A stretch of DNA of 32,000 nt from Sinorhizobium meliloti (lineage in GTDB: Bacteria; Pseudomonadota; Alphaproteobacteria; Rhizobiales; Rhizobiaceae). A program made the position numbers and the translations under genes. Below are positions 2 to 29,565 of the stretch, one piece after another (within the stretch, counting starts at the first letter, position 1; every line of letters starts with the position of its first letter). The notes below the pieces were generated by a model. The model ran no database searches and had not been told where the DNA came from. It saw only the letters and a program-made list of their open reading frames with translations. The stretch is taken from the NCBI RefSeq assembly GCF_017876815.1, contig NZ_JAGIOS010000003.1, positions 1,200,001 to 1,232,000 of the forward strand, written 5' to 3'.

Positions 2-1105
2 GAGCCGACCAACAATCTGGATCGTGACGGCAGACGGGCGGTTATCGACCTTCTTTCCGGCTGGCGCAGCGGGGCAATTGTCGTTAGCCACGATCGTGAA
101 CTGCTCGAAGAAATGGACGCGATTATCGAACTGAGCTCGGTCGGGACAAAGCGCTACGGCGGGGGCTGGAGTTCCTATCAGGCGGCGAGGGCGGTTGAGC
201 TGGAAGCGGCGCAACAAAGCCTCGCACATGCACAGAAGACCGCCGACGAAATCGACCGCAAGGCACGTGCCTTGGCAGAGCGGCTGGACAAGCGTGGCGC
301 GTCTGGTACCCGAAAAGCGGCAAAGGGCGACATGCCGCGGATTCTAATGGGCCGGCGCAAGAGCAATGCGGAAGAAAGCCGGGGCAAGGGTGTGGAACTC
401 GCCGAGCGACAGCGCGCAGCCGCGCTCGACGCCGTCACAGCGGCCAAAGCGCGGATCGAGGTGCTGCAGCCGTTCTCTATCCGTCTTCCGCGAACCGATC
501 TTCCCGCCGGCCGGCAAGTCCTCGCGTTTGACCGCGTTACGGCGGGCTACGATCCCGCCCGTCCGGTCATTCGGGATCTATCCTTCTCGCTTGTCGGCCC
601 GCGGCGCCTTTCGGTCACCGGCCCCAACGGGGCGGGCAAAACGAGTCTTCTGAAGGTAGTCACCGGAGAATTGCGACCCTTTAACGGAACCGTTTCCGTA
701 AATGTTCCCTTCTCTCTGCTGGACCAGAGCGTCAGTATTCTGGAGCGCGGCGAGACGATCCTCGATAATTTCAAGCGGCTCAATCCCGGTGCCAGCGACA
801 ACGCCTGCCGGGCGGCCTTGGCCAGCTTTCGCTTCCGCGCGGATGCGGCCTTGCAAAGGGTGGAGACGTTGAGCGGCGGGCAGGTGCTGCGCGCCGGCCT
901 TGCCTGCGCACTCGGCGGTTCCGATCCCCCATCGCTGCTCATTCTCGACGAGCCGACCAACCATCTGGATATCGACTCCATCGAGGCGGTCGAAGCTGGG
1001 CTGCTCGCCTATGACGGCGCACTCGTCGTCGTCAGCCACGACGAGACATTCCTTGCAAACATCGGGATAGGCACGCGTCTGGAGCTTTCGACCTCCTGGG
1101 GCTGA
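2..1105 (+). CDS. ABC-F family ATPase (tandem ABC ATP-binding domains), 5' end outside window
   Basis: The reading frame is open from the window edge (EPTNNLD = Walker B of the first NBD). A charged linker follows, then a second NBD with Walker A GPNGAGKT, signature LSGGQ and Walker B LLILDEPTNHLD. No TM segments. Stop at 1103-1105. Confidence 0.85.
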   Translation, partial: EPTNNLDRDGRRAVIDLLSGWRSGAIVVSHDRELLEEMDAIIELSSVGTKRYGGGWSSYQAARAVELEAAQQSLAHAQKTADEIDRKARALAERLDKRGASGTRKAAKGDMPRILMGRRKSNAEESRGKGVELAERQRAAALDAVTAAKARIEVLQPFSIRLPRTDLPAGRQVLAFDRVTAGYDPARPVIRDLSFSLVGPRRLSVTGPNGAGKTSLLKVVTGELRPFNGTVSVNVPFSLLDQSVSILERGETILDNFKRLNPGASDNACRAALASFRFRADAALQRVETLSGGQVLRAGLACALGGSDPPSLLILDEPTNHLDIDSIEAVEAGLLAYDGALVVVSHDETFLANIGIGTRLELSTSWG

Positions 1106-9766: not shown

Positions 9767-9860
9767 CTGACTGGTCTCCCATTGTCACGACTATATGGAA
9801 CTTCGCGTCACCGGACCCCTTTTTCTCAACAGTTCTGTGGTCCGCTCCAGCGGTTTGGGA

Positions 9861-12125: not shown

Positions 12126-13171
12126 CGGCGAATCCTGTACTGGGTGAAGAAGACACCGGTCAGCATGCTGATCAGCGACAGGGCGACTGTGACATCGGCT
12201 ATGTAAGAGGGAATACCCATGCTGCGGCTCATCCCGTCGGCCCCGACGAACATGACGGCCGTGAACAGGGCGGCAAGCACCACGCCCAGCGGATGAAGAT
12301 TGGCGAGCATGGCGACGACGATGCCGGAATAGCCGTAACCCGGCGACAGGTCCGTCGTCACATAGCCCTGCACGCCCATGACTTCGATAGCCCCCGCAAG
12401 GCCGGCGAGCCCGCCTGAAATGCAGGCCACCGTCACCAGGGTGCGGCCGAGCGGCACGCCTGCGAACACCGCCCCGGCCGGATTGAGGCCGGCTGCGCGC
12501 GACTGCATGCCGAACACCGTGCGCGACTGAACGAGATGGACTGCAACGGCCAGGACGAGTGCGATCATCAGTCCGATATGGAGGCGGGATCGGGCGAAAA
12601 GCTTTGGCAGGACCGCTGCGTCGGCAACCGGTTGGGACTGCGGCCATCCGAAGCCCATCGGGTCCTTGAGTGGTCCGTCGATCAGCATGGAGACGAAGAG
12701 CACGGCGACGAAATTGAGGAGAAGCGTGGTGACGACCTCGTCGACCGAAAAGCGCAGCCTCAGCCAAAGCGGCACGAGCAGCAGGACGATGCCGGCTGCC
12801 GCGCCGACGACGAGAAGCAGCGGAATCTGGAGGGGCGAGGGGAGGCCGCCGAAAAGGTGCGAACTGGCGGCGGCGACGGCAATCGCTCCGAGATAGAACT
12901 GACCCTCGGCGCCGATGTTCCAGAGCCTCGCGCGAAACGCGACCGCCGCGGCAAGGCCCGTCAGGATGAGCGGGCTGGCGCGGGTCAAGGTTTCGGTCGC
13001 CGAAAGCCGCGAGCCGAAGGCGCCGACGAGAATGCGCCAATAGGCTTCCATGACCGGGGCACCGGCGATAGCGATGAGCAGGCCGGCGAGCGCCAGCGCG
13101 CAGAGGATCGCAAGCACGGGTGTCGCGATCACCAGGGCGAGCGAACGATGTTCGCGTCGTTCAAAACGCAT
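12122..13171 (-). CDS. ABC transporter permease (first permease)
   Basis: Multi-TM protein with LWNIGAEGQFYLGAI typical of BMP-type sugar/nucleoside permeases. The ATG at 13171 has a GAGG 6 nt upstream; an alternative ATG lies at 13192. Confidence 0.85.
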   Translation of the reverse strand: MRFERREHRSLALVIATPVLAILCALALAGLLIAIAGAPVMEAYWRILVGAFGSRLSATETLTRASPLILTGLAAAVAFRARLWNIGAEGQFYLGAIAVAAASSHLFGGLPSPLQIPLLLVVGAAAGIVLLLVPLWLRLRFSVDEVVTTLLLNFVAVLFVSMLIDGPLKDPMGFGWPQSQPVADAAVLPKLFARSRLHIGLMIALVLAVAVHLVQSRTVFGMQSRAAGLNPAGAVFAGVPLGRTLVTVACISGGLAGLAGAIEVMGVQGYVTTDLSPGYGYSGIVVAMLANLHPLGVVLAALFTAVMFVGADGMSRSMGIPSYIADVTVALSLISMLTGVFFTQYRIRR

Positions 13172-17097: not shown

Positions 17098-17137
17098 GGA
17101 TGGTGTTCCCCTTTTTACCGATTGGTAGAATCTTTAT

Positions 17138-17158
17138 TTTGTACAAAGTTTTGTCAAG
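17138..17158 (-). promoter_or_regulatory. Candidate promoter -35 (CTTGAC) with a 10-bp palindrome TTTGTACAAA in the spacer, upstream of the BMP-ABC operon
   Basis: On the minus strand, CTTGAC (17153-17158) matches the rhizobial sigma70 -35 consensus as I recall it. The perfect palindrome tttgtacaaa (17138-17147) lies in the 17-nt spacer. The binding-protein ATG is at 17097. The -10 is weak (aaagat). Confidence 0.4.
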
Positions 17159-17399
17159 CAGCGCGAATGAGTAGAAAAGCGGCAACGGAACACATGCTGG
17201 GTTATCTCGCAGAAGTTTCATATCTGCCGGGTGAGCGCGACAGGTGTCGTATTGCCTTCGCGGAACAAGCCCGACGTGCGTTCGTTTCCAACTTGCGAAG
17301 GAGCATCAAGACAGAAGTGCCCAAGGAAGCCTCCGTGTGCCAAGGCACATGTGAGGCTTCCTTGTGCGGGGTGGTCGAGCCGTCAACCCGGAGCTGTTC

Positions 17400-18176
17400 A
17401 TGGAAGAATTTATCCTGTTCGCGTTGGTCGGCTTTCTCGCTCAGGTGATCGATGGTGCTCTAGGCATGGCCTACGGCGTCATCTGCTCGACGGTGCTTCT
17501 TGCCTTCGGCGTGCCGCCTGCCCAGGCGTCGGCGTCAGCCCATGCGGCGGAATTGTTCACCACTGCCGCTTCCGGATCGGCCCATCTCTATCACCGCAAC
17601 ATCGATTGGAAGCTGTTCTGGCGGCTCATTCCCTTTGGCATCGCCGGTGGCATGCTGGGTGCCTTCGTGGTGACCTCGTTTGACGGAGATCAGGTCAAGC
17701 CTTTCGTCACGGCCTATCTTGCAGTGATTGGAGCCTGGCTGCTTTACCGCTCCTTTCATCGCATTCCCACAAACCCGGTCAAGCTGAGGATCGTGGCACC
17801 GCTCGGCGCAACCGCGGGGTTCCTGGATGCCGCTGGTGGCGGCGGATGGGGACCCGTTGCGACCACCGGTCTGCTCGGCGCCGGTGGACAGCCGCGCTTC
17901 GTCATCGGGACCGTCAATGCGAGCGAGTTTCTGATCGCACTTTCAGTGTCTCTGAGCTTCCTGGCCACGGTTCTAACCGGTCACTGGGAACAGGCTGGCG
18001 ATTTCCGCGATCATCTTACATCCATAGGCGGGCTGATTACGGGCGGCGTGCTGGCGGCGCCTTTTGCAGGATGGGTGGTCAAGGCACTGCAAGAGAAAAC
18101 GCTTCTGCGGCTCGTCGGATCTTTGATCACGCTTTTGGCAGGCTATCAGACGCTCGAACTTACCGGGTTTCTCTGA
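17400..18176 (+). CDS. TSUP/TauE-SafE family membrane transporter
   Basis: MEEFILFALVGFLAQVIDGALGMAYGV... has multiple TM segments and a GGGGWGP motif in the second half. The track ORF begins 36 nt upstream at a non-ATG codon. Confidence 0.8.
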   Translation: MEEFILFALVGFLAQVIDGALGMAYGVICSTVLLAFGVPPAQASASAHAAELFTTAASGSAHLYHRNIDWKLFWRLIPFGIAGGMLGAFVVTSFDGDQVKPFVTAYLAVIGAWLLYRSFHRIPTNPVKLRIVAPLGATAGFLDAAGGGGWGPVATTGLLGAGGQPRFVIGTVNASEFLIALSVSLSFLATVLTGHWEQAGDFRDHLTSIGGLITGGVLAAPFAGWVVKALQEKTLLRLVGSLITLLAGYQTLELTGFL

Positions 18177-18187
18177 ACACCGGTTTC

Positions 18188-18919
18188 TCAGATGGCATAA
18201 AGCTCAATCGGCTTCTCAAAGCCCTTGAGGCGGTATTCTCGGCCCTCGCTTGCCGCCGTTTGGCTCTGCGCGCGCTCGCAAACGGCCCTGGTCACGAGGA
18301 TTCGCCCCGCCTCGGCGGCGGATTGGGCCCGAGCGGCAGTATTCACAACCGTACCGATAGCAGTCAGGTCGCGGTGCGATCGGCCGAACTCTCCGAAGCT
18401 GGCCTCACCGGTGTCGATGCCGATGCCAACCCCGAGCTCACTTCCGTCCAGGCCGGCACCTTCCGCCAAGCGAAACTCACGGCGCAATTGGCATCGGCGC
18501 TGGATCTCCCGCGCCGCGAGCACAGCGCGCTCAGCGTGATCCTGGTGGGGGATCGGAAAGTTGAAGATTGCCATGATCGCGTCCCCGACCGTCTTGTTAA
18601 GAAGGCCGTCGAACTCCCAAATCGCCGCGGCACATTCATCGTAGAAATCATCCAGCAGCGACGAAACAATATCGGCCGAGAGCGATTGCGAAAGCGCCGT
18701 GTAGCCTCGCAGATCTGCAAAAAGGACGGAGACGTCAACAGTGATCTTGCGGGCTTTCATCACGCGCGTGAACATTAGTTCACAGATCGTGCAGGTATTC
18801 GGGTTCATCCGGCTCGGGCGGATGCCAAAGGCGCGGAAGGGAATGGAAGCCGGCCCGCGCAGGGGCACGGGAATACGCATCTGCTCCCAGCATCCCTTGC
18901 AAATCCTGGATTGAGACAT
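18188..18919 (-). CDS. Class III adenylate/guanylate cyclase with N-terminal Cys4 (CxxC...CxxC) module
   Basis: Cyclase core VLFADLRGYT...NKTVGDAIMAIFN...IGIDTGEASFGEFG...TAIGTVVNTAARAQ. N-terminus carries CKGC and CTIC 32 aa apart. Confidence 0.8.
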   Translation of the reverse strand: MSQSRICKGCWEQMRIPVPLRGPASIPFRAFGIRPSRMNPNTCTICELMFTRVMKARKITVDVSVLFADLRGYTALSQSLSADIVSSLLDDFYDECAAAIWEFDGLLNKTVGDAIMAIFNFPIPHQDHAERAVLAAREIQRRCQLRREFRLAEGAGLDGSELGVGIGIDTGEASFGEFGRSHRDLTAIGTVVNTAARAQSAAEAGRILVTRAVCERAQSQTAASEGREYRLKGFEKPIELYAI

Positions 18920-19024
18920 GTTGCCGCCGCCCTGCTTGCGTGACGCAATGCGACTTTCGCATATATCGGCAACAAAATCTCCCGAAAACCCTCGGGTGTC
19001 TGTATTTGAGACCGCGACAGTCCG

Positions 19025-19147
19025 TTAGCCTTCAGACAGTTGTTCGGCTGTGGCCGCTATGGGTGCATTCCCCAAGGAATTATTGACGTACTTGAAAGCA
19101 AGTATGCTGATAATCGAGGCGACTATAACTAAGATGACGAGACGCAT
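19025..19147 (-). CDS. Hypothetical 40-aa single-TM peptide (candidate)
   Basis: ATG...TAA ORF encoding MRLVILVIVASIISILAFKYVNNSLGNAPIAATAEQLSEG. Not in the ORF track (under 60 aa) and has no clear SD. Lies in the AT-rich islet. Confidence 0.3.
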   Translation of the reverse strand: MRLVILVIVASIISILAFKYVNNSLGNAPIAATAEQLSEG

Positions 19148-19341
19148 GAAAATTTACCATGTTCGTTGCACCGAGAAACTCTCTCGGAGACCTCGTTGTT
19201 CCAGCACCTCCGATTCGGTGGGAACGCCAACTGACTACATGAGCAGTAATTCATGGATAAGCCTGACGAAACCGGTGCCTGCCTTTTCGGCGGCAACCGA
19301 TGGCTCTCACCTGTCCGGGCGACCTCTCGAAAAGTCTTTCC

Positions 19342-19521
19342 TCAACGATCCTGTGTTTGCGCGACAGGCAGATAGACTTTCGAGCCGACGTGCTCGCCAC
19401 CAGTCAACGAGTTCCCGACCAGCAGGTAGGCTGATATTCCGAGGACCGACAGCAGCAGAATGCTTACGGGCAGTCCCGTTGAGACGTGATGTTCCGGTTC
19501 CTGATAATTCCATCTAGTCAT
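19342..19521 (-). CDS. Hypothetical 59-aa single-TM protein (candidate)
   Basis: MTRWNYQEPEHHVSTGLPVSILLLSVLGISAYLLVGNSLTGGEHVGSKVYLPVAQTQDR, with GGAG 9 nt upstream of the ATG. An extended -10-like TGGTATAAT sits on the minus strand at 19631-19639. Confidence 0.35.
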   Translation of the reverse strand: MTRWNYQEPEHHVSTGLPVSILLLSVLGISAYLLVGNSLTGGEHVGSKVYLPVAQTQDR

Positions 19522-19801
19522 TCGAACGTACTCCACTCTACACAAAGTGAGAACGAGCCACCGATGCAGCAGTTCCTGCACCGATGGTTGAACCTGGGTA
19601 ACGATGTTCGAGGCGTTGTAACGAGCCGGCATTATACCATGCCGTCGCTGCCGCGGAGGGGTTATTGGCGGGGTATCATTCCGCCATGTTCACCGACCGT
19701 TCCTACCTATTTCAGGCGCGGCTGAGGCTGCAGCGGGGATGAGGGAAAGTGCGTGCGGTTTCAGGTCGCTGGAGATGCGGACTCACTCCGCCACGGTCCG
19801 C

Positions 19802-19924
19802 TTACCAGAACACGTCGTAAAGGGTAATAAAGACAATCATTCCAATGCAGACTGCTGGCGTCGACCTGATCGCGAAGTCGACTGGATTGAATTGGTATCC
19901 GAAGCTTTCAACATAAGATTTCAT
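19802..19924 (-). CDS. Hypothetical 40-aa C-terminally anchored peptide (candidate)
   Basis: MKSYVESFGYQFNPVDFAIRSTPAVCIGMIVFITLYDVFW, preceded by GGGAGGA 10 nt upstream of the ATG. A hairpin GCGGAC...GTCCGC lies just downstream. Confidence 0.4.
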   Translation of the reverse strand: MKSYVESFGYQFNPVDFAIRSTPAVCIGMIVFITLYDVFW

Positions 19925-20197
19925 GACTTTTGTTTCCTCCCTGTGAGTTGTCTGGGACCCAGAACGGTCAGAGCACTTCCAGGAAAAGTGTCGTAACGGT
20001 ATTCCGTCCGGACCGCTCGCTTCCTTCTGAAGCGACCTTCGCAACATTCGATCACGACCCGCGGAGCTTGTTTGACTCCACGGCAGCACGAATAAGTGCC
20101 GCCATACCTTAGTACTTCAGCAGCAGAGAAGGTTTGCGCCTTTGAGGAGTAGATCGATTATCGGAGAGTTGATGGTAGGACGTTAGAGCCACGCCCG

Positions 20198-20534
20198 TCA
20201 ATGAGTACGGTTAATCGTTGGGGCATAAATATGGCGAAACCAAGATTTATCAAGGTATTCCTGATGAGAAGCCAGAAAATCAACGCGAATTTTTTCAACG
20301 TCTCCGGATTTTACTAGAGTGACGACTTCCCATATTCTTGGTATTTTTCTCACGGATGCCGATAAAGTTTCCTGCTTGGTCATTCAGGATTTTATTTTTA
20401 CTTTGCAGCGGCAGACCGCCGAAAACGCTCTCGGCCACGAGCTTCGCCTCGCGCATGCTGCATGGCTGGGTTGCGAATTCCGCTCTACGATCGGAGCGAG
20501 ACTGTTGTATAGTCAATTCATCGAAGCGATGCAC
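20198..20534 (-). pseudogene. Frameshifted ORF relic of unknown family (weak BrnT/DUF497-like pattern)
   Basis: Two overlapping minus-strand ORFs (20295..20534 and 20198..20383) join at an A5 run (plus-strand T5 at 20344-20348). The joined product is ...REAKLVAESVFGGLPLQSKNKILNDQAGNFIGIREK/IPRIWEVVTLVKSGDVEKIRVDFLASHQEYLDK.... About 38% GC. The family assignment rests only on pattern recollection. Confidence 0.25.
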
Positions 20535-20680
20535 CTCCTCCCGCAGAGCTTCGATATGCGAGCGACCTTTCCTCCTCCCGAGTTCGCTTGCGGGATCAGC
20601 GCTACTCCTCCTCCCGGAATGCTGATCGGTTCTTTTGGAAAAGCCTGCCGCACCTCCTCCCGCGGTAGGCTTTTTCGTTT
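20518..20680 (+). ncRNA. alpha-r14 / 'cuckoo' / NfeR1-like trans-acting sRNA with four CCUCCUCCC anti-SD hairpin loops
   Basis: Exact 10-mer CCTCCTCCCG at 20534, 20571, 20607 and 20653, each in a hairpin loop. Stems: 20521-27/20548-54 (7 bp); 20558-65/20584-91 (8 bp, one GU); 20594-600/20621-27 (7 bp); 20639-50/20663-74 (12 bp, one GU). The last is followed by TTTTTCGTTT, giving an intrinsic terminator. A -10-like TATAGT lies at 20508-20513. Confidence 0.7.
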
Positions 20681-20701: not shown

Positions 20702-21838
20702 TCACAGCGCCAGGGCGAGCTGCGGCTCGCTCCGATCGTCCACCGTATCGAGAGACGAGAGCGTGACCCCGAGCAACCGAATGCCTTTTGGGACTGGAAA
20801 GATTGGTGACAGGAGCAGCTCCGCGATTTCGCGCATTTCTGCGACGCTCGCTATCGGCGCGACGATGGTCTTGCTTCTGGTGATCTGCGTGAAATCTGCC
20901 CACTTCACCTTCAGTGTCATGGTCTTGCCGCGAATGCCGCTGGCTTCACAATAGTGCCAGACCTTGTCGATCAGAGGCTTGAGGCCCGCGCGGGCCGTTT
21001 CAAGATCATGAACATCCTCCCGAAACGTATCCTCGGCGCCGATCGATTTTCGGATGCGGTCGGGCTTGACCTCACGCTCGTCAATGCCGCGGGCGATCCA
21101 GTAGAAATACGGCCCCGACTTGCCGAAATGCTGCTGAAGGAAGGCGAGATCACGGGATTTGAGATCGGCGCCGGTTTCGATCCCAAGCCTTTTCATCTTC
21201 TCGGCCGTTGCCGGTCCGACGCCGTGAAACTTTTTGACAGGAAGCGCCTGCACGAATTCTGGACCGCGCTTCGGCGTGATGACGAACAACCCATCGGGCT
21301 TGCGCTGATCCGACGCCATCTTCGCAAGGAACTTGTTGTAGGAGACGCCGGCGGATGCCGTGAGGTGCGTCTCGGCCTTGATCCTGGTGCGAATCTCTTC
21401 GGCGATCTCGGTTGCGAGCCTCAGTCCCTTCAAGTTCTCGGTGACGTCGAGGTAGGCCTCGTCCAGCGACAATGGTTCGATCAACGGCGTGTATTCGGCG
21501 AAGATCGCCTGGATTTGCCGCGAGACGGCCCGGTAGACGTCGAAGCGGTGCGGAACGAAGATCAGGTCCGGACATTTGCGCTTGGCCGTCACCGAGGGCA
21601 TAGCCGAGTGAACGCCGAACTTGCGCGCCTCGTAGCTTGCGGCCGCCACCACCCCGCGCGCCTCCGGATAACCGACTGCGACCGGTTTGCCTCGAAGCTC
21701 CGGATTGTCGCGCTGCTCAACCGAAGCATAAAATGCGTCCATGTCGATATGGATGATTTTGCGAACGCGGCCGCCGGGGGTGGGGGCAAGTGCCCCACCG
21801 CTCCTGTCACCTTCCTCTGGCTCTCCGCCCACCGGCAT
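20702..21838 (-). CDS. dinB: DNA polymerase IV (Y-family)
   Basis: IIHIDMDAFYASVEQRDNPELRGKPVAV, SLDEAYLDVT and GVSYNKFLAKMASD are all DinB hallmarks. 378 aa. Confidence 0.92.
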   Translation of the reverse strand: MPVGGEPEEGDRSGGALAPTPGGRVRKIIHIDMDAFYASVEQRDNPELRGKPVAVGYPEARGVVAAASYEARKFGVHSAMPSVTAKRKCPDLIFVPHRFDVYRAVSRQIQAIFAEYTPLIEPLSLDEAYLDVTENLKGLRLATEIAEEIRTRIKAETHLTASAGVSYNKFLAKMASDQRKPDGLFVITPKRGPEFVQALPVKKFHGVGPATAEKMKRLGIETGADLKSRDLAFLQQHFGKSGPYFYWIARGIDEREVKPDRIRKSIGAEDTFREDVHDLETARAGLKPLIDKVWHYCEASGIRGKTMTLKVKWADFTQITRSKTIVAPIASVAEMREIAELLLSPIFPVPKGIRLLGVTLSSLDTVDDRSEPQLALAL

Positions 21839-21995
21839 TCATTTCCTCTCGCTATAGCGCTGTCTATTCTACCCGAACCTCCATCGCCTTCTTAGCCGTA
21901 AAGTTGCTCGAAATAGATGTGGACGACCGCCACTCCAAAGGAGTTGCCGAGGGCGTGTGGAGACGAGCACCACGCGTCCTCGGCCTATCGCTGTT

Positions 21996-27273: not shown

Positions 27274-27804
27274 TCATTGGGAACGCGGCTCGTTGTTGTC
27301 GACAACCGCGTGATAGGCGGCGAGATCGAGAAAAGCTTCGGCCTCGACCACCGCTCCGTTCTTCATCAGGAATATCCAGACGAACTTATTTCTGTAAGGC
27401 GCTCCCGAAGTCGTGGTTGCCGATCCGTCGAACCGGACGATGACCGTGTCTCCATCGGCCCAGATATGATGCACCCTTGGCACCAGAGGGGTTGCGAGAC
27501 GGCTGATCAGGGGAGCCGAGGCCCGCTCGACGAAATCCTCGACGCCACGGTAAGTGCCGGCCACGGGAGCGGAACCGTGGATTGTCCAGACGACATCTGG
27601 CGCGAGAAGCTCTGCAAAGATGTTGCCGTCTGCTCGCCACTTATCGAATGCCGCGCGCACGGTGGTTATATTCTGCGCCTCGATATCGGCCGTTGGCGCG
27701 ATGGTATCGGCATGCGCCGGTCCCATGCTGGCCCCAACCGCCGAGGCGATCAGCAGCTTGCGGCCGCCGCCGGCGAGGCGATCTGTCATTAAGGAAAAGA
27801 TCAT
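27274..27804 (-). CDS. NTF2/SnoaL-like fold protein with signal peptide
   Basis: MIFSLMTDRLAGGGRKLLIASAVGASMGPAHA signal, then an approximately 140-aa alpha+beta domain (NITTVRAAFDKWRADGNIFAELLAPDVVWTIHG...WADGDTVIVRFDG...FLMKNGAVVEAEAFLD). Confidence 0.65.
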   Translation of the reverse strand: MIFSLMTDRLAGGGRKLLIASAVGASMGPAHADTIAPTADIEAQNITTVRAAFDKWRADGNIFAELLAPDVVWTIHGSAPVAGTYRGVEDFVERASAPLISRLATPLVPRVHHIWADGDTVIVRFDGSATTTSGAPYRNKFVWIFLMKNGAVVEAEAFLDLAAYHAVVDNNEPRSQ

Positions 27805-27860
27805 GGAATATTCCTTTCGTCGGGACGCGGGAAAAAGCCCCGAGATCGGTTCGCGCCGGG

Positions 27861-28583
27861 TCAATTGCCCGATGCGGTCGGTCTGATCGTGATCTCGGTG
27901 GTGTCCACGCTCTGCGGGGCCTCGATCACCTGCCGGACCGCACGGGCGATGTCGGCAGGCTGAAGCGCGATGGCGCGATAGGTGTCCATCGCCGCCATGG
28001 TCTCCTCGTGGGTGATGGTTCCAGCAAGTTCGCTTTCGACGACGCCGGGATTGACGCAGGTGACGCGGATATTGGTACTCTCCTGGCGCAGTCCGTCAGA
28101 GATCGCGCGGACTGCGAACTTCGTTGCGCAATATACCGCGGCTGTGGGTACGACCGACAGCGCTCCGATCGAGCCGATATTGATGATCTGCCCGCTACGC
28201 TGTGCCTCCATGATTGGCAATACGGCCCCGATGCCCCAAAGCACGCCCTTGATGTTCACGTCGATCATGCGCTCCCACTCGTCCACCTTAACTGCGGCAA
28301 GCGGCGAGAGCGGCATGACGCCGGCATTGTTCACCAGGACGTCGATGCGTCCCCAAGTGTCGACCGCGGCCTGCGCAAAGGCTGCCATGGAGTGACGGTC
28401 GGTCACGTCCAGCACCTGCGCCAGGGCGGTACCTCCTGCGTCTCGAATCTCCGTGGCAATGGCCTCGATACGGGCCTGGCGGCGTGCACCCAACAATATT
28501 TTCCCACCGGCGGCGCCAAGCTCTCGAGCGATGCCCTCGCCGATGCCGCTGGAGGCGCCAGTGATCAGAATGACCTTGTCCAT
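27861..28583 (-). CDS. Short-chain dehydrogenase/reductase (SDR)
   Basis: MDKVILITGASSGIGEGIA (TGxxxGxG), NNAG, and catalytic Y-x3-K (YCATKFAV). GGAG RBS. 240 aa. Confidence 0.9.
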   Translation of the reverse strand: MDKVILITGASSGIGEGIARELGAAGGKILLGARRQARIEAIATEIRDAGGTALAQVLDVTDRHSMAAFAQAAVDTWGRIDVLVNNAGVMPLSPLAAVKVDEWERMIDVNIKGVLWGIGAVLPIMEAQRSGQIINIGSIGALSVVPTAAVYCATKFAVRAISDGLRQESTNIRVTCVNPGVVESELAGTITHEETMAAMDTYRAIALQPADIARAVRQVIEAPQSVDTTEITIRPTASGN

Positions 28584-28682
28584 GGTGTACTCCGTCCTTT
28601 GAGTTGCACGGAGAAGATGGACTTTGATGACTGTCGCGGGTACCCATCGCTCACTGAACTCAATGGTTAGCAGCACTCTACA

Positions 28683-29565
28683 ATGTTAGACATGAACCTT
28701 CTGCCGCTCTTCCTGGCTGTCGCCGAGGAGGACAACTTCCGTGCTGCCGCCGATCGCCTCGGTGTGACCCGCTCGGCTGTCAGCCAAGGAATGCGGCGGC
28801 TCGAAGATGCCTTTGGTACGACGCTCGTCACCCGCACGACGCGTTCAGTTCGCCTGACCGAAGCGGGGGAGCGTCTGCGCGAGGCTCTGTCGCAGCCCTT
28901 GTCGGATATTGCGACGGCGCTTCGATCGGGTAGCGGGTGATGAACCCCGCGGTCTCTTGCGGATCGGCGTCACCTCGATCGCCGAGCAATTCCTTTCCGG
29001 TCCGCTCATCGCTTCCTTTGCTCAGGCCCATCCCAAGGTGACGATAGACGTCACCGTCACGGACGAGGAGTTCGATATCGTGGCCGCTGGTTTCGACGCG
29101 GGCGTCAGGCTTGGCGAGGTGATCGAGCAGGACATGATCGCGGTGCCGCTGACGGGCGATCAGCGCGAGCTGGCCGTTGCTGCCCCCGCCTATATCGCAG
29201 TCCACGGCACGCCGGCGCACCCGCGTGAGCTGGTCCATCATCGCTGCATAGGCTGGCGGCGAGCGCCGAATGTCGCGCCCTACAGGTGGGAATTCGAGGA
29301 GAATGGTGTTCCCTTCGACGTGGCGGTCGAGCCCCAGATTACCACCAATGACCTGCGCTTCATGCTCCGCTCAGCCCTCTGCGGGGCCGGGATCACCTTT
29401 GCAACGGAAGAAACGTTCCGCCCGTTCGTAGAAACCGGTGAACTCGTCCCGCTGCTGCAGGATTTCCTGCCCCCATTCCCCGGTTTCTTTCTTTATTTCC
29501 CTCACCGCCGCAACATGGCGCCAAAGATGCGAGCTTTGATCGAGCATATACGGCGGTGGCGATAA
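28683..29565 (+). pseudogene. LysR-family transcriptional regulator with a single frameshift
   Basis: The HTH part (NLLPLFLAVAEEDNFRAAADRLGVTRSAVSQGMRRLEDAFGTTLVTRTTRSVRLTEAGERL...SDIATAL) stops at 28938-28940. The rest (DRVAGDEPRGLLRIGVT...FLYFPHRRNMAPKMRALIEHIRRWR) continues in the +1 frame. The junction is at about 28918-28925. Divergent from the SDR gene. Confidence 0.8.

Follow-up and report, generated by a model that had tools for sequence, protein, structure and literature searches.

Results and discussion

Features of the dinB–cyclase intergenic region

The window, that is, the whole 32-kb stretch of Sinorhizobium meliloti DNA that was analysed, is a 100% match to pSmeSM11c (the pSymA megaplasmid) of S. 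meliloti SM11. An AT-rich islet in it, located at 18960-20520, corresponds to the intergenic region (IGR) between SMa2355 (dinB) and SMa2357 (a cyclase gene) of strain 1021. The following features were ascribed to the islet and its borders, the micro-ORFs being termed A, B and C:

18920..19024, minus strand: A–cyclase spacer, with a hairpin and U-run at 18981-18996 and the cyclase's own start-site region
19025..19147, minus strand: micro-ORF A, 40 aa, MRLVILVIVASIISILAFKYVNNSLGNAPIAATAEQLSEG; N-terminal hydrophobic helix, conserved acidic tail
19177..19202, minus strand: putative RpoE2-type promoter of A, GGAACAACGAGGTCTCCGAGAGAGTT, by motif match; predicted start ~19169
19203..19341: B–A spacer, fast-evolving
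19342..19521, minus strand: micro-ORF B (SMa_ORF_29 of 1021), 59 aa, MTRWNYQEPEHHVSTGLPVSILLLSVLGISAYLLVGNSLTGGEHVGSKVYLPVAQTQDR; predicted single-pass membrane protein
19552..19576, minus strand: putative RpoE2-type promoter of B, GGAACTGCTGCATCGGTGGCTCGTT, by motif match; predicted start ~19543
19629..19637, minus strand: extended -10-like element, TGGTATAAT, ~110 nt upstream of B; putative promoter
19688..19702, read on the minus strand: direct repeat GAAC-N7-GAAC, the form of an alpha-proteobacterial LexA/SOS box
19802..19924, minus strand: micro-ORF C, 40 aa, MKSYVESFGYQFNPVDFAIRSTPAVCIGMIVFITLYDVFW; C-terminal hydrophobic helix
19933-19941, minus strand: ribosome-binding site of C, GGGAGGAAA; strong
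19966..20021: copy of a dispersed intergenic repeat found at 900 places in 248 Sinorhizobium/Rhizobium plasmid records
20022..20519: AT-richest stretch, 0.46 G+C; non-coding, between C and the divergently oriented sRNA gene
~20450-20519: conserved ar14 upstream region, with a likely -10 (TATAGT) at 20508-20513
20520..20677, plus strand: ar14-family sRNA Smr14A2, four hairpins, each loop with CCUCCUCCC; right neighbour of the islet

Base composition and synteny

The hand counts on which an earlier note on this DNA had based a G+C dip (23/60 at 19081-19140, 23/60 at 20201-20260, and 40/60 at 13001-13060) were exact on recount, and the dip was borne out by a computed profile, with a G+C of 0.516 (51.6%) at 18960-20520 against a window mean of 0.618 (61.9%). 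This is the lowest value of any 1.56-kb segment in the whole window, in which stretches of 1561 nt outside the islet never fall below 0.587, and 300-nt windows drop to 0.46 at 20050-20500. Short true IGRs of the same window were found to have G+C contents of 0.508 (17098-17363), 0.543 (9767-9860) and 0.554 (21839-21995). Since these are similarly low, a dip of this kind is to be expected wherever this replicon is non-coding over most of a long segment. The AT-richness of the islet can be ascribed to its being mostly regulatory or spacer DNA, which has ca. 51-55% G+C in this replicon, and to its sole coding sequences being three very small, weakly codon-biased genes restricted to Sinorhizobium/Ensifer. 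These micro-ORFs contribute to the dip with a G+C of 0.46 for A and 0.43 for C, and a GC3 of 0.54-0.56 vs ca. 0.7-0.8 in neighbouring genes.

The whole 1.64-kb islet shows 88% DNA identity between SM11 and 1021, and dinB, C, B, A and the cyclase gene follow one another in this same order in S. meliloti, S. kummerowiae, Sinorhizobium sp. K101, Ensifer sp. USDA 6670 and S. medicae. Neither an integrase nor any domain-bearing ORF was found in the islet, nor flanking direct repeats around it, nor a tRNA gene across the whole 32-kb window. With no integrase, tRNA, flanking repeats or patchy distribution, and with synteny kept across species, the islet shows no sign of being a genomic island, in agreement with the earlier statement that it is not a classical one.

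Three micro-ORFs are conserved

The 27 ORFs of at least 25 aa present in the islet were tested for intactness and for pN/pS against S. meliloti haplotypes, Sinorhizobium sp. K101 and S. medicae (four divergent relatives). Only A, B and C are intact in all four, the rest being broken. All three lie on the minus strand and show pN/pS values indicative of purifying selection (0.22, pooled, for A; 0.43 for B; 0.10 for C), and each contains a hydrophobic 17-mer with a KD mean of at least 2.05, consistent with one hydrophobic helix apiece. The three micro-ORFs that had been held plausible are therefore, by conservation and pN/pS, exactly the three credible ones, and the description of the islet as almost gene-free has to be abandoned, given that two of these conserved genes have mapped RpoE2-dependent starts in 1021. 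No match with E < 0.01 was found for A, B or C among Pfam, NCBIfam, PHROGs and PADLOC profiles, and a word-index search of 5.8 billion proteins matched only close Sinorhizobium/Ensifer relatives. The peptides are also absent from the portion available to us of the supplementary tables of the S. meliloti Ribo-seq/proteogenomics paper.

Larger ORFs of 61 aa (20198-20383), 79 aa (20295-20534), 155 aa (19050-19517, plus strand) and 96 aa (an extended B) were considered as genes and rejected because of stops or frameshifts in relatives or a pN/pS of ca. 0.6-0.8, together with the lack of Pfam matches. In the case of the 61-aa and 79-aa ORFs, stops or frameshifts occur in 1021, ml59, R28, K101 and S. 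medicae, and pN/pS is 0.74-0.82. These two ORFs, previously taken as an ORF relic, have homology to nothing and constitute a non-conserved open frame upstream of the sRNA gene. The claim that no ORF of at least 60 aa has a recognisable domain holds, since none in the islet matched Pfam, nor did the three of them that were also scanned match NCBIfam. As to whether relatives carry a normal annotated gene here, they do so in part: some annotate B, C and even the spurious 61-aa ORF, all of them as hypothetical proteins. The reference records seen, whose gene tables are incomplete, list no features in this 1.6-kb stretch.

Micro-ORF A and its link to the cyclase gene

Micro-ORF A is intact in all relatives. 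It was found in 12 species genomes of Sinorhizobium/Ensifer, its length being 40 aa in 11 of them, and has an invariant tail (SILAFKY..N.L.NAP..ATAE.LS) and a variable hydrophobic stretch (KD mean of 2.79 for residues 3-19). Its ribosome-binding site is weak (GGTAA/GGAAA). An RpoE2 box is found 55 nt upstream of its ATG in this window, is kept 53-64 nt upstream in 11 of 12 species genomes, and is also present before the dispersed copies of A in S. fredii and S. americanum. The corresponding start in 1021, at 1329684, is rpoE2-dependent and was located by both RNA-seq and 5' RACE (Schlüter 2013), but its transcript was classed there as a putative 5'-UTR of SMa2357, the cyclase gene, and not as a gene. 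A second start of the 1021 cyclase mRNA was located 29 nt upstream of the cyclase ATG (TSS3271; Schlüter 2013).

5' RACE primers placed inside the cyclase gene of 1021 also reached the upstream RpoE2 start, which indicates that A and the cyclase gene are co-transcribed in that strain. Because the A transcript runs at least partly into the cyclase gene in 1021, A would be the first cistron, or a leader ORF, of a joint A–cyclase message driven by RpoE2. No conserved neighbour gene of A was found across clades. A terminator-like hairpin after A (18981-18996) was considered and discarded, since its stem is broken in 1021 and RACE shows read-through. Across 19150-19350, SM11 and the 1021/R28 alleles are separated by indels and are just 58-70% identical in those 50-nt windows that diverge most, vs 94-100% in the flanking genes.

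Micro-ORF B and its putative RpoE2 promoter

Micro-ORF B is intact in all relatives, although its pN/pS is just moderately low, and in each of 8 close genomes it is among the called genes, with 59 aa; its 1021 ortholog is the 'new ORF' SMa_ORF_29 of Schlüter (2013). The family of ca. 60-aa proteins to which it belongs comprises 37 clusters in 1.84 billion proteins, and the eight clusters whose source names were checked are all from Sinorhizobium/Ensifer, with one from a compost metagenome. No profile match is common to more than 2 of 30 family members (none in Pfam or NCBIfam), and no conserved neighbour gene of the B paralogues was found across clades.

The RpoE2 box of B lies, as in A, 55 nt upstream of the ATG in this window, these being the two occurrences of GGAAC-N15-18-GTT in the islet, with none before C. 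S. medicae and E. canadensis have kept it; the paralogues of LMB1 and S. fredii have lost it. The start of the 1021 ortholog, at 1329308, 22 nt before the ATG, has been determined by 5' RACE and RNA-seq and is rpoE2-dependent (Schlüter 2013). In published rpoE2-overexpression arrays, signal log ratios of 2.52 and 2.46 were obtained for the 1021 orthologues, and 5' RACE was scored 'Yes'. RpoE2 control of A and B has thus been demonstrated for the 1021 orthologues, and we infer it for the present DNA from the conserved GGAAC-N16-GTT boxes. The regulation was measured in 1021, whose islet is 88% identical to the present one.

Further elements upstream of B

The leader region of B is long and conserved and includes a covarying hairpin. 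The extended -10-like element, TGGTAT(A/G)AT, is kept upstream of the aligned B homologues, including non-syntenic ones, with varying flanks and with the variant TGGTGCTAAAAT in E. canadensis. Further upstream, the direct repeat at 19688-19702 is the sole perfect match in the 32 kb to GAAC-N7-GAAC, which has been described as the alpha-proteobacterial LexA motif (PMC3323433, PMC6237742). Its half-sites are invariant, with a spacer sequence that differs between five lineages. The repeat precedes every close B homologue examined, one of them with an N6 spacer, and is found at the aligned position before the non-syntenic B paralogues of LMB1, S. fredii and RCAM1750. Away from B genes, ca. 10 matches were counted in 308 kb of loci (ca. 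0.03 per kb), some of them in near-duplicate loci. The centre of the repeat is ca. 71 nt (ca. 81 nt in paralogues) upstream of the start predicted from TGGTATAAT, and no promoter closer to the repeat than TGGTATAAT was identified. Among 40 of 341 DnaE2-peptide matches there was no Sinorhizobium record from which an imuA–dnaE2 cassette could provide a positive-control LexA box. The presence of two extra conserved elements upstream of B, the extended -10 and the GAAC repeat, suggests a second input besides RpoE2.

It could be the case that B encodes a LexA/SOS-controlled small membrane protein, for instance a SidA-like inhibitor of cell division, with RpoE2 as a second, lineage-specific input, although we consider this unlikely. 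In favour of it, the repeat is perfect, with invariant half-sites and a spacer free to vary, and it has been kept in three non-syntenic paralogue lineages, as against ca. 0.03 matches per kb elsewhere, whereas the RpoE2 box is missing in several paralogues; moreover, SidA is itself a 29-aa SOS-induced inner-membrane protein. On the other hand, the repeat stands upstream of the core promoter, an unusual place for a repressor, and its two spacings (51 nt vs 60-61 nt), one helical turn apart, would suit an activator of the OmpR/PhoB type equally well. One perfect match per 32 kb is what chance alone would yield for the motif, the adjacent dinB has no GAAC-N7-GAAC box, and neither do the more distant members of the B family. 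It is similarly doubtful, if conceivable, that the GAAC repeat, the extended -10 and the 59-aa peptide together form a mobile, LexA-controlled, damage-induced module to which RpoE2 wiring was added in the S. meliloti lineage. If this were true, the B module would be a rhizobial counterpart of SidA/TisB, and a single micro-protein would be the meeting point of two major stress pathways. To our knowledge, no damage-induced small membrane protein or division inhibitor has been described in rhizobia, and a literature search likewise found none.

Micro-ORF C and the right-hand part of the islet

Micro-ORF C, annotated in some genomes as a hypothetical protein, has the lowest pN/pS of the three. Between SM11 and 1021 its product shows 100% identity, although the DNA of the islet has just 88%, and the S. 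medicae protein is 85% identical; the identity of paralogues is 75% for those on accessory plasmids and 40-50% for those of E. canadensis and S. fredii. No promoter of C was identified; a sigma-70-like site at 20172-20201 (minus strand) was discarded as such, its -10 being destroyed in R28 and K101. No relic was found in the window of an 83-aa partner gene that precedes the C paralogues on accessory plasmids.

R28, K101 and S. medicae have islet alleles that lack the short dispersed repeat next to C (19966-20021). The AT-richest stretch that follows (20022-20519) contains the non-conserved 61-aa and 79-aa ORFs as well as the conserved ar14 upstream region, the segment 20450-20560 being kept before the ar14 copies on plasmids of Ensifer, Pararhizobium, Rhizobium and Agrobacterium. 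The sRNA that had been noticed beside the islet is a bona fide ar14: Rfam RF02344 matches 20552-20677 (plus strand) with 87 bits vs a gathering threshold of 58.8, the fold of 20512-20680 has a z of -5.3, with an extra 5' hairpin at 20520-20555, and the published Smr14A2 Northern probe matches 20550-20574 (del Val 2012). Smr14A2 gave no Northern signal in 1021 in TY broth (del Val 2012). The 1021, R28, S. medicae and M162 loci likewise have this ar14 copy, which K101 lacks.

A reading of the islet

Taken together, these results make it probable that the islet is the long dinB–cyclase IGR of pSymA, carrying three tiny membrane-protein genes, of which A and B are RpoE2-driven, together with the upstream region of Smr14A2. 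For each of A, B and C, with its one hydrophobic helix, a single-pass inner-membrane protein would be the most likely product. Under heat, salt, oxidative stress or starvation, to which the general-stress ECF sigma factor RpoE2 responds, this factor would switch on A and B, the former as first cistron or leader ORF of the A–cyclase message, and B might receive a second regulatory input through the extended -10 and the GAAC-N7-GAAC repeat. By analogy with other stress-induced small membrane proteins, we infer that under stress the peptides may become inserted in the inner membrane and act there as modulators of larger membrane complexes. The pN/pS of B (0.43), the weak ribosome-binding site of A, the lack of an identified promoter for C, the absence of the peptides from the Ribo-seq/proteogenomics supplements as far as available, and the 88% identity to the islet of 1021, in which regulation was measured, weigh against this explanation.

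That the micro-ORFs encode type I toxin–antitoxin toxins checked by antisense RNAs, serving megaplasmid stabilisation or stress-induced dormancy, seems to us improbable. All three do have 40-59 aa with one hydrophobic helix and are plasmid- or chromid-borne, their paralogues being scattered on accessory plasmids, one adjoining repC, and the long conserved leader of B, with its covarying hairpin and SOS-type box, is reminiscent of tisB and dinQ. However, the only RNA family found by Rfam is ar14, there is no conserved antisense promoter, and the mapped 1021 starts of the region are all sense-strand in the available portion of the published start list, which does not include TSS3266, 3269 and 3270. 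Moreover, A and B are under a stress sigma factor with short leaders of 22-27 nt, unlike long structured toxin mRNAs, and K101 keeps all three ORFs though it has lost the neighbouring sRNA. It would be about as surprising if the conserved blocks acted as RNA rather than coding for protein, A being, for instance, merely a regulated 5'-UTR of the cyclase gene. The start was filed in that way by Schlüter (2013), RACE ties it to the cyclase gene, and the ribosome-binding site of A is weak; against this, A and its promoter are found with no cyclase gene in several species, S. fredii, S. americanum, S. terangae and E. aridi among them, the frame and length of A are kept in 11 of 12 species, substitutions are mostly synonymous or conservative, and expression of the IGR did not track that of the cyclase gene. 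Least credible of all, and very improbable, is a decaying piece of horizontally acquired AT-rich DNA in which the ORFs are meaningless leftovers. The lowest G+C of the window, the atypical GC3 of the micro-ORFs, spacers down to 58-70% identity between strains and an inserted dispersed repeat could be taken as its traces, but gene order has been kept from S. meliloti to S. medicae, selection maintains three ORFs while their surroundings decay, the promoters are conserved across species, and there is no integrase, tRNA or flanking repeat. The xenogeneic remnant that had been suggested is hence at odds with an arrangement common to five Sinorhizobium/Ensifer lineages and with a G+C that is that of other intergenic DNA here.

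The preferred reading, that of a long IGR with three membrane-protein genes, corrects the gene map of a well-studied model symbiont by three conserved micro-protein genes in 1.6 kb, and adds three Sinorhizobium/Ensifer-restricted families to the poorly charted small membrane proteins of the alpha-proteobacterial general stress response. Micro-ORF A would also explain a published puzzle, namely an rpoE2-dependent '5'-UTR' signal out of step with its supposed gene, and the SOS-type operator motif conserved with the B family provides one testable lead. The newness of these findings is moderate, and they do not overturn current understanding.

Comparison with known systems

The islet resembles genomic islands and xenogeneic DNA in its locally low G+C and atypical codon use, and differs from them in having conserved synteny and a replicon-typical intergenic G+C, with no integrase, tRNA or direct repeats. 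Smr14A2 agrees with the ar14 family (cuckoo, NfeR1-type) in scoring above the Rfam threshold and in the anti-Shine-Dalgarno CCUCCUCCC of its loops, but this copy adds a fourth, 5' hairpin outside the Rfam model. The sRNA adjoins the AT-rich body without belonging to it, and its upstream region makes up the islet's right edge.

Like the DNA-damage-induced membrane proteins SidA and DidA of Caulobacter, the products of A, B and C are small and have a single transmembrane helix, and B has a LexA-type motif upstream. TisB and DinQ of E. coli are DNA-damage-induced small membrane proteins to which the likeness is one of size and single helix. There is no sequence similarity to any of the four, and the position of the box of B is atypical for repression; B also differs from sidA, described as a lone chromosomal gene of Caulobacter, in having several paralogues on plasmids.

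A comparison can also be made with the direct targets of RpoE2 (EcfG type). An RpoE2 box is lacking in C, Schlüter (2013) did not recognise A as a gene, and the older and more widely kept upstream elements of the B family are not of the RpoE2 type. A and B, on the other hand, carry GGAAC-N16-(c)GTT, B is orthologous to SMa_ORF_29 and the 1021 starts are rpoE2-dependent, in a set in which 150 of the 202 rpoE2-dependent protein-coding genes are without predicted function (Schlüter 2013).

Composition and genomic position of the islet

The AT-rich islet at 18960-20520 has a G+C content of 51.6%, against a mean of 61.8% for the window. The computed profile thus bears out the dip that the earlier note had read from hand counts, which were exact (23/60 G+C at both 19081-19140 and 20201-20260, and 40/60 at 13001-13060). 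For stretches of 1561 nt this is the minimum across the 32 kb (those clear of the islet go no lower than 58.7% G+C), 300-nt windows fall to 46% at 20050-20500, and the dip is unique within the window. True short intergenic regions of the same window show 50.8% (17098-17363), 54.3% (9767-9860) and 55.4% (21839-21995); the islet stands out by how long its non-coding-like stretch is rather than by its base composition.

The islet is 100% identical to positions 27562-29202 of plasmid pSmeSM11c (pSymA) of S. meliloti SM11, about 50 pSymA-type records contain it entire, and its counterpart in strain 1021 is the SMa2355–SMa2357 intergenic region. The S. meliloti haplotypes are only 82-88% identical in the islet, yet they keep the order dinB–islet–cyclase, which was also found in S. 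kummerowiae, Sinorhizobium sp. K101, Ensifer sp. USDA 6670 and S. medicae. As had been stated from the sequence, this is not a classical island, there being no tRNA in the window, no flanking direct repeats and no integrase-like ORF. The suggestion of a foreign remnant fared less well: a recent insertion is rejected, given the synteny conserved across species and a G+C content typical of intergenic DNA. The islet is an ordinary but under-annotated intergenic region, whose features and flanks are as follows.

Features of the islet and its flanks
18188-18919, minus strand: adenylate/guanylate cyclase gene, 243 aa (flank)
19025-19147, minus strand: ORF A, 40 aa, pN/pS 0.22
19342-19521, minus strand: ORF B, 59 aa, pN/pS 0.43
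19629-19637: extended -10-like element TGGTAT(A/G)AT upstream of B, from the paralogue alignment
19688-19702: direct repeat GAAC-N7-GAAC, 51 or 60-61 nt upstream of the -10-like element, from the paralogue alignment
19802-19924, minus strand: ORF C, 40 aa, pN/pS 0.10
20022-20519: AT-richest 0.5 kb, separating C from the divergent ar14 sRNA gene
20702-21838, minus strand: dinB (flank)

A copy of the block dinB – ar14 – A – cyclase – TauE – BMP lies on accessory plasmid A (416 kb) of S. meliloti M162; evidently replicons exchange this region. Among eight close S. meliloti genomes, three have dinB called only as a 164-aa C-terminal fragment, and the pSymA copy may be disrupted in some strains.

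Three conserved micro-ORFs

The islet had been described as almost gene-free, but it holds three conserved ORFs under purifying selection. When the islet was aligned from seven genomes and every ORF of at least 25 aa was tested for intactness and pooled pN/pS, three of the 27 (A, B and C, all on the minus strand) were intact in 1021, R28, K101 and S. medicae, and these had the lowest pooled pN/pS among ORFs without overlap with another conserved frame. In relatives the remaining ORFs are interrupted by stops or frameshifts, and pN/pS is near 1 in most; a 61-aa ORF called in some annotations, a 79-aa ORF, a 155-aa plus-strand ORF and a 96-aa extension of B were rejected as genes, being broken in relatives. 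The conserved blocks of the seven-genome profile are A, B with 200 nt upstream, C, and the sRNA upstream region, and the spacers at 19150-19340 and 19950-20450 contain indels and are as little as 26-70% identical over the 50-nt windows where they diverge most. A Pfam scan agreed with the earlier note that no islet ORF of at least 60 aa has a domain, and A, B and C had no match in Pfam, NCBIfam, PHROGs or PADLOC.

Each of the three has a single, strongly hydrophobic 17-residue stretch (residues 3-19 in A, 19-35 in B and 24-40 in C), and the peptides are probably translated and inserted in the membrane. In A the tail SILAFKY..N.L.NAP..ATAE.LS is invariant and the hydrophobic part freely variable, consistent with a membrane anchor whose exposed tail is functional or with a signal peptide followed by a short mature peptide. 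Among 185,579 species, each represented by one genome, A was detected in 12, all Sinorhizobium/Ensifer, with a length of 40 aa in 11 of them; beyond the S. meliloti/S. medicae clade it lies in unrelated contexts with no cyclase nearby. The B family of ~60-aa proteins comprises 37 clusters at E <= 0.001 in 1.84 billion representatives and shares PE..S.GLP, a helix, AYL.VGG and VYLP. Eight clusters were checked for source: all are from Sinorhizobium/Ensifer except one compost-metagenome record, and wherever named they are hypothetical or uncharacterised proteins. Paralogues of C occur on accessory plasmids (75%) and in E. canadensis and S. fredii (40-50%), having in common F.P(V/L)(D/E)F.IR and a C-terminal ...TFYG.FW. 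The low GC3 of the micro-ORFs (0.54-0.60 vs. 0.67-0.84) and their genus-restricted, scattered distribution are consistent with small genes that are young or mobile.

A strong ribosome-binding site, GGGAGGAAA at 19933-19941, precedes C in all alleles. No promoter for C was identifiable, and a sigma-70-like site at 20172-20201 was discarded for lack of conservation.

Paralogues of C and B also lie in variable clusters of small hypothetical genes, on accessory plasmids (L018, L019, L023), in S. fredii (L021, L022) and at two further loci (L041, L043). These clusters include a protein of 83 aa with a WE(A/S)EGGAP motif, whose translation is coupled to that of C, as well as one of 86 aa and a member of the Y4lK family. 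A cyclase gene is again nearby where the cluster is on accessory plasmids.

Control of A and B

The islet has two instances of the pattern GGAAC-N15-18-GTT of the general-stress sigma factor RpoE2, 19177-19202 and 19552-19576, both on the minus strand and each 55 nt upstream of an ATG, that of A and that of B, respectively. The box of A is kept in 11 of the 12 species, including cyclase-less loci. In strain 1021, as described by Schlüter et al. 2013 (PMC3616915), RNA-seq and 5' RACE placed one start 27 nt ahead of the ATG of A (1329684) and another 22 nt ahead of that of B (1329308), which is named SMa_ORF_29 there; an RpoE2 motif precedes each and both were scored rpoE2-dependent. Array probes over the segments of A and B rose, with signal log ratios of 2.52 and 2.46, when rpoE2 was overexpressed. 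Control by RpoE2, demonstrated for 1021, probably holds for the present strain.

That study assigned the start upstream of A to a putative 5'-UTR of the cyclase gene, and its authors reported an intergenic signal without correlation to the cyclase coding region, a discrepancy for which the unrecognised ORF A accounts. The RACE primers sat inside the cyclase gene, so that the reported transcript reads through into it, and strain 1021 has only a degenerate form of the hairpin that follows A; in that strain, therefore, at least some transcripts span both A and the cyclase gene. SM11 has an intact hairpin and U-run (18981-18996), so termination may be stronger in it.

Further RpoE2-type boxes (GGAAC-N15-16-GTT) lie at 17262-17286 (plus), ~80 nt upstream of a TauE/SafE-family gene (17364-18176), and at 683-708 (minus). 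The former suggests that the general stress regulon extends across the neighbourhood.

Conservation is higher in the 200 nt upstream of B than in B itself. Of the non-syntenic paralogues aligned to this region (LMB1 pA, S. fredii CCBAU 83666, RCAM1750 p_2 and E. canadensis pT173d), every one keeps the -10-like element and the GAAC repeat, and only some the RpoE2 box. The half-sites of the repeat are invariant while its spacer differs between five lineages (N6 in E. canadensis); the perfect form occurs once in the window and at ~0.03 per kb away from B genes (308 kb of fetched loci). The repeat is a conserved putative operator, and LexA is the leading candidate for its occupant, the published alpha-proteobacterial LexA motif being GTTC-N7-GTTC (PMC3323433, PMC6237742). 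A simple SOS repressor fits less easily: the repeat is centred ~71-81 nt upstream of the predicted start, its spacings are one helical turn apart, which suits an upstream activator, e.g. of the OmpR/PhoB type, just as well, and distant B-family genes have no GAAC box. On the preferred reading, A, B and C would act as stress-induced modulators of membrane complexes; readings of the peptides as SOS effectors or as type I toxins are less likely.

A hairpin (19640-19687, minus) lies between the repeat and the TGGTATAAT element, with stems that covary between paralogues (SM11 GGCGG..CCGCC, S. fredii GGCAG..CTGCC, RCAM1750 GGCAGG..CCTGCC). The region upstream of dinB (21839-21995) has no LexA-type box.

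The right-hand part and the ar14 sRNA

At ~19966-20021 the SM11 and 1021 alleles carry a 45-55-nt intergenic repeat of a dispersed kind, with 900 occurrences in 248 Sinorhizobium/Rhizobium plasmid or chromid records; the R28, K101 and S. medicae alleles lack it. Other genera also have the right-hand 70 nt of the AT-richest segment, in conserved form, ahead of their ar14 copies. The sRNA is identified as Smr14A2 by a Rfam hit of 87 bits and by agreement with the Northern probe of del Val 2012; no signal for it was seen there in TY cultures of 1021. Its fold (20512-20680, plus) has four hairpins with CCUCCUCCC on each (z = -5.3), the first of which, 20520-20555, begins upstream of the Rfam model start at 20552. 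Positions 20517-20555 are 97-100% identical in Rhizobium and Agrobacterium plasmids, above the rest of the sRNA, and the likely -10 is TATAGT at 20508-20513. K101-type plasmids have lost the sRNA copy and kept A, B and C.

In pK101b of Sinorhizobium sp. K101, dinB and the cyclase gene enclose A, B and C, but ar14 and most of the AT-richest segment are missing. A perfect 14-nt inverted repeat, ACGATCGGAGCGAG / CTCGCTCCGATCGT (20487-20500 and 20726-20739, the right arm within the dinB 3' end), flanks the sRNA gene on both sides; the chance expectation for such pairs in 2 kb is about 0.01. The scattered 'cuckoo' distribution of ar14 copies may be related to this repeat.

Compared with what has been published, SMa_ORF_29, the RpoE2 start sites and Smr14A2 were already described; the additions are modest, namely A as a gene, C as a conserved gene and a LexA-type candidate operator of the B module.
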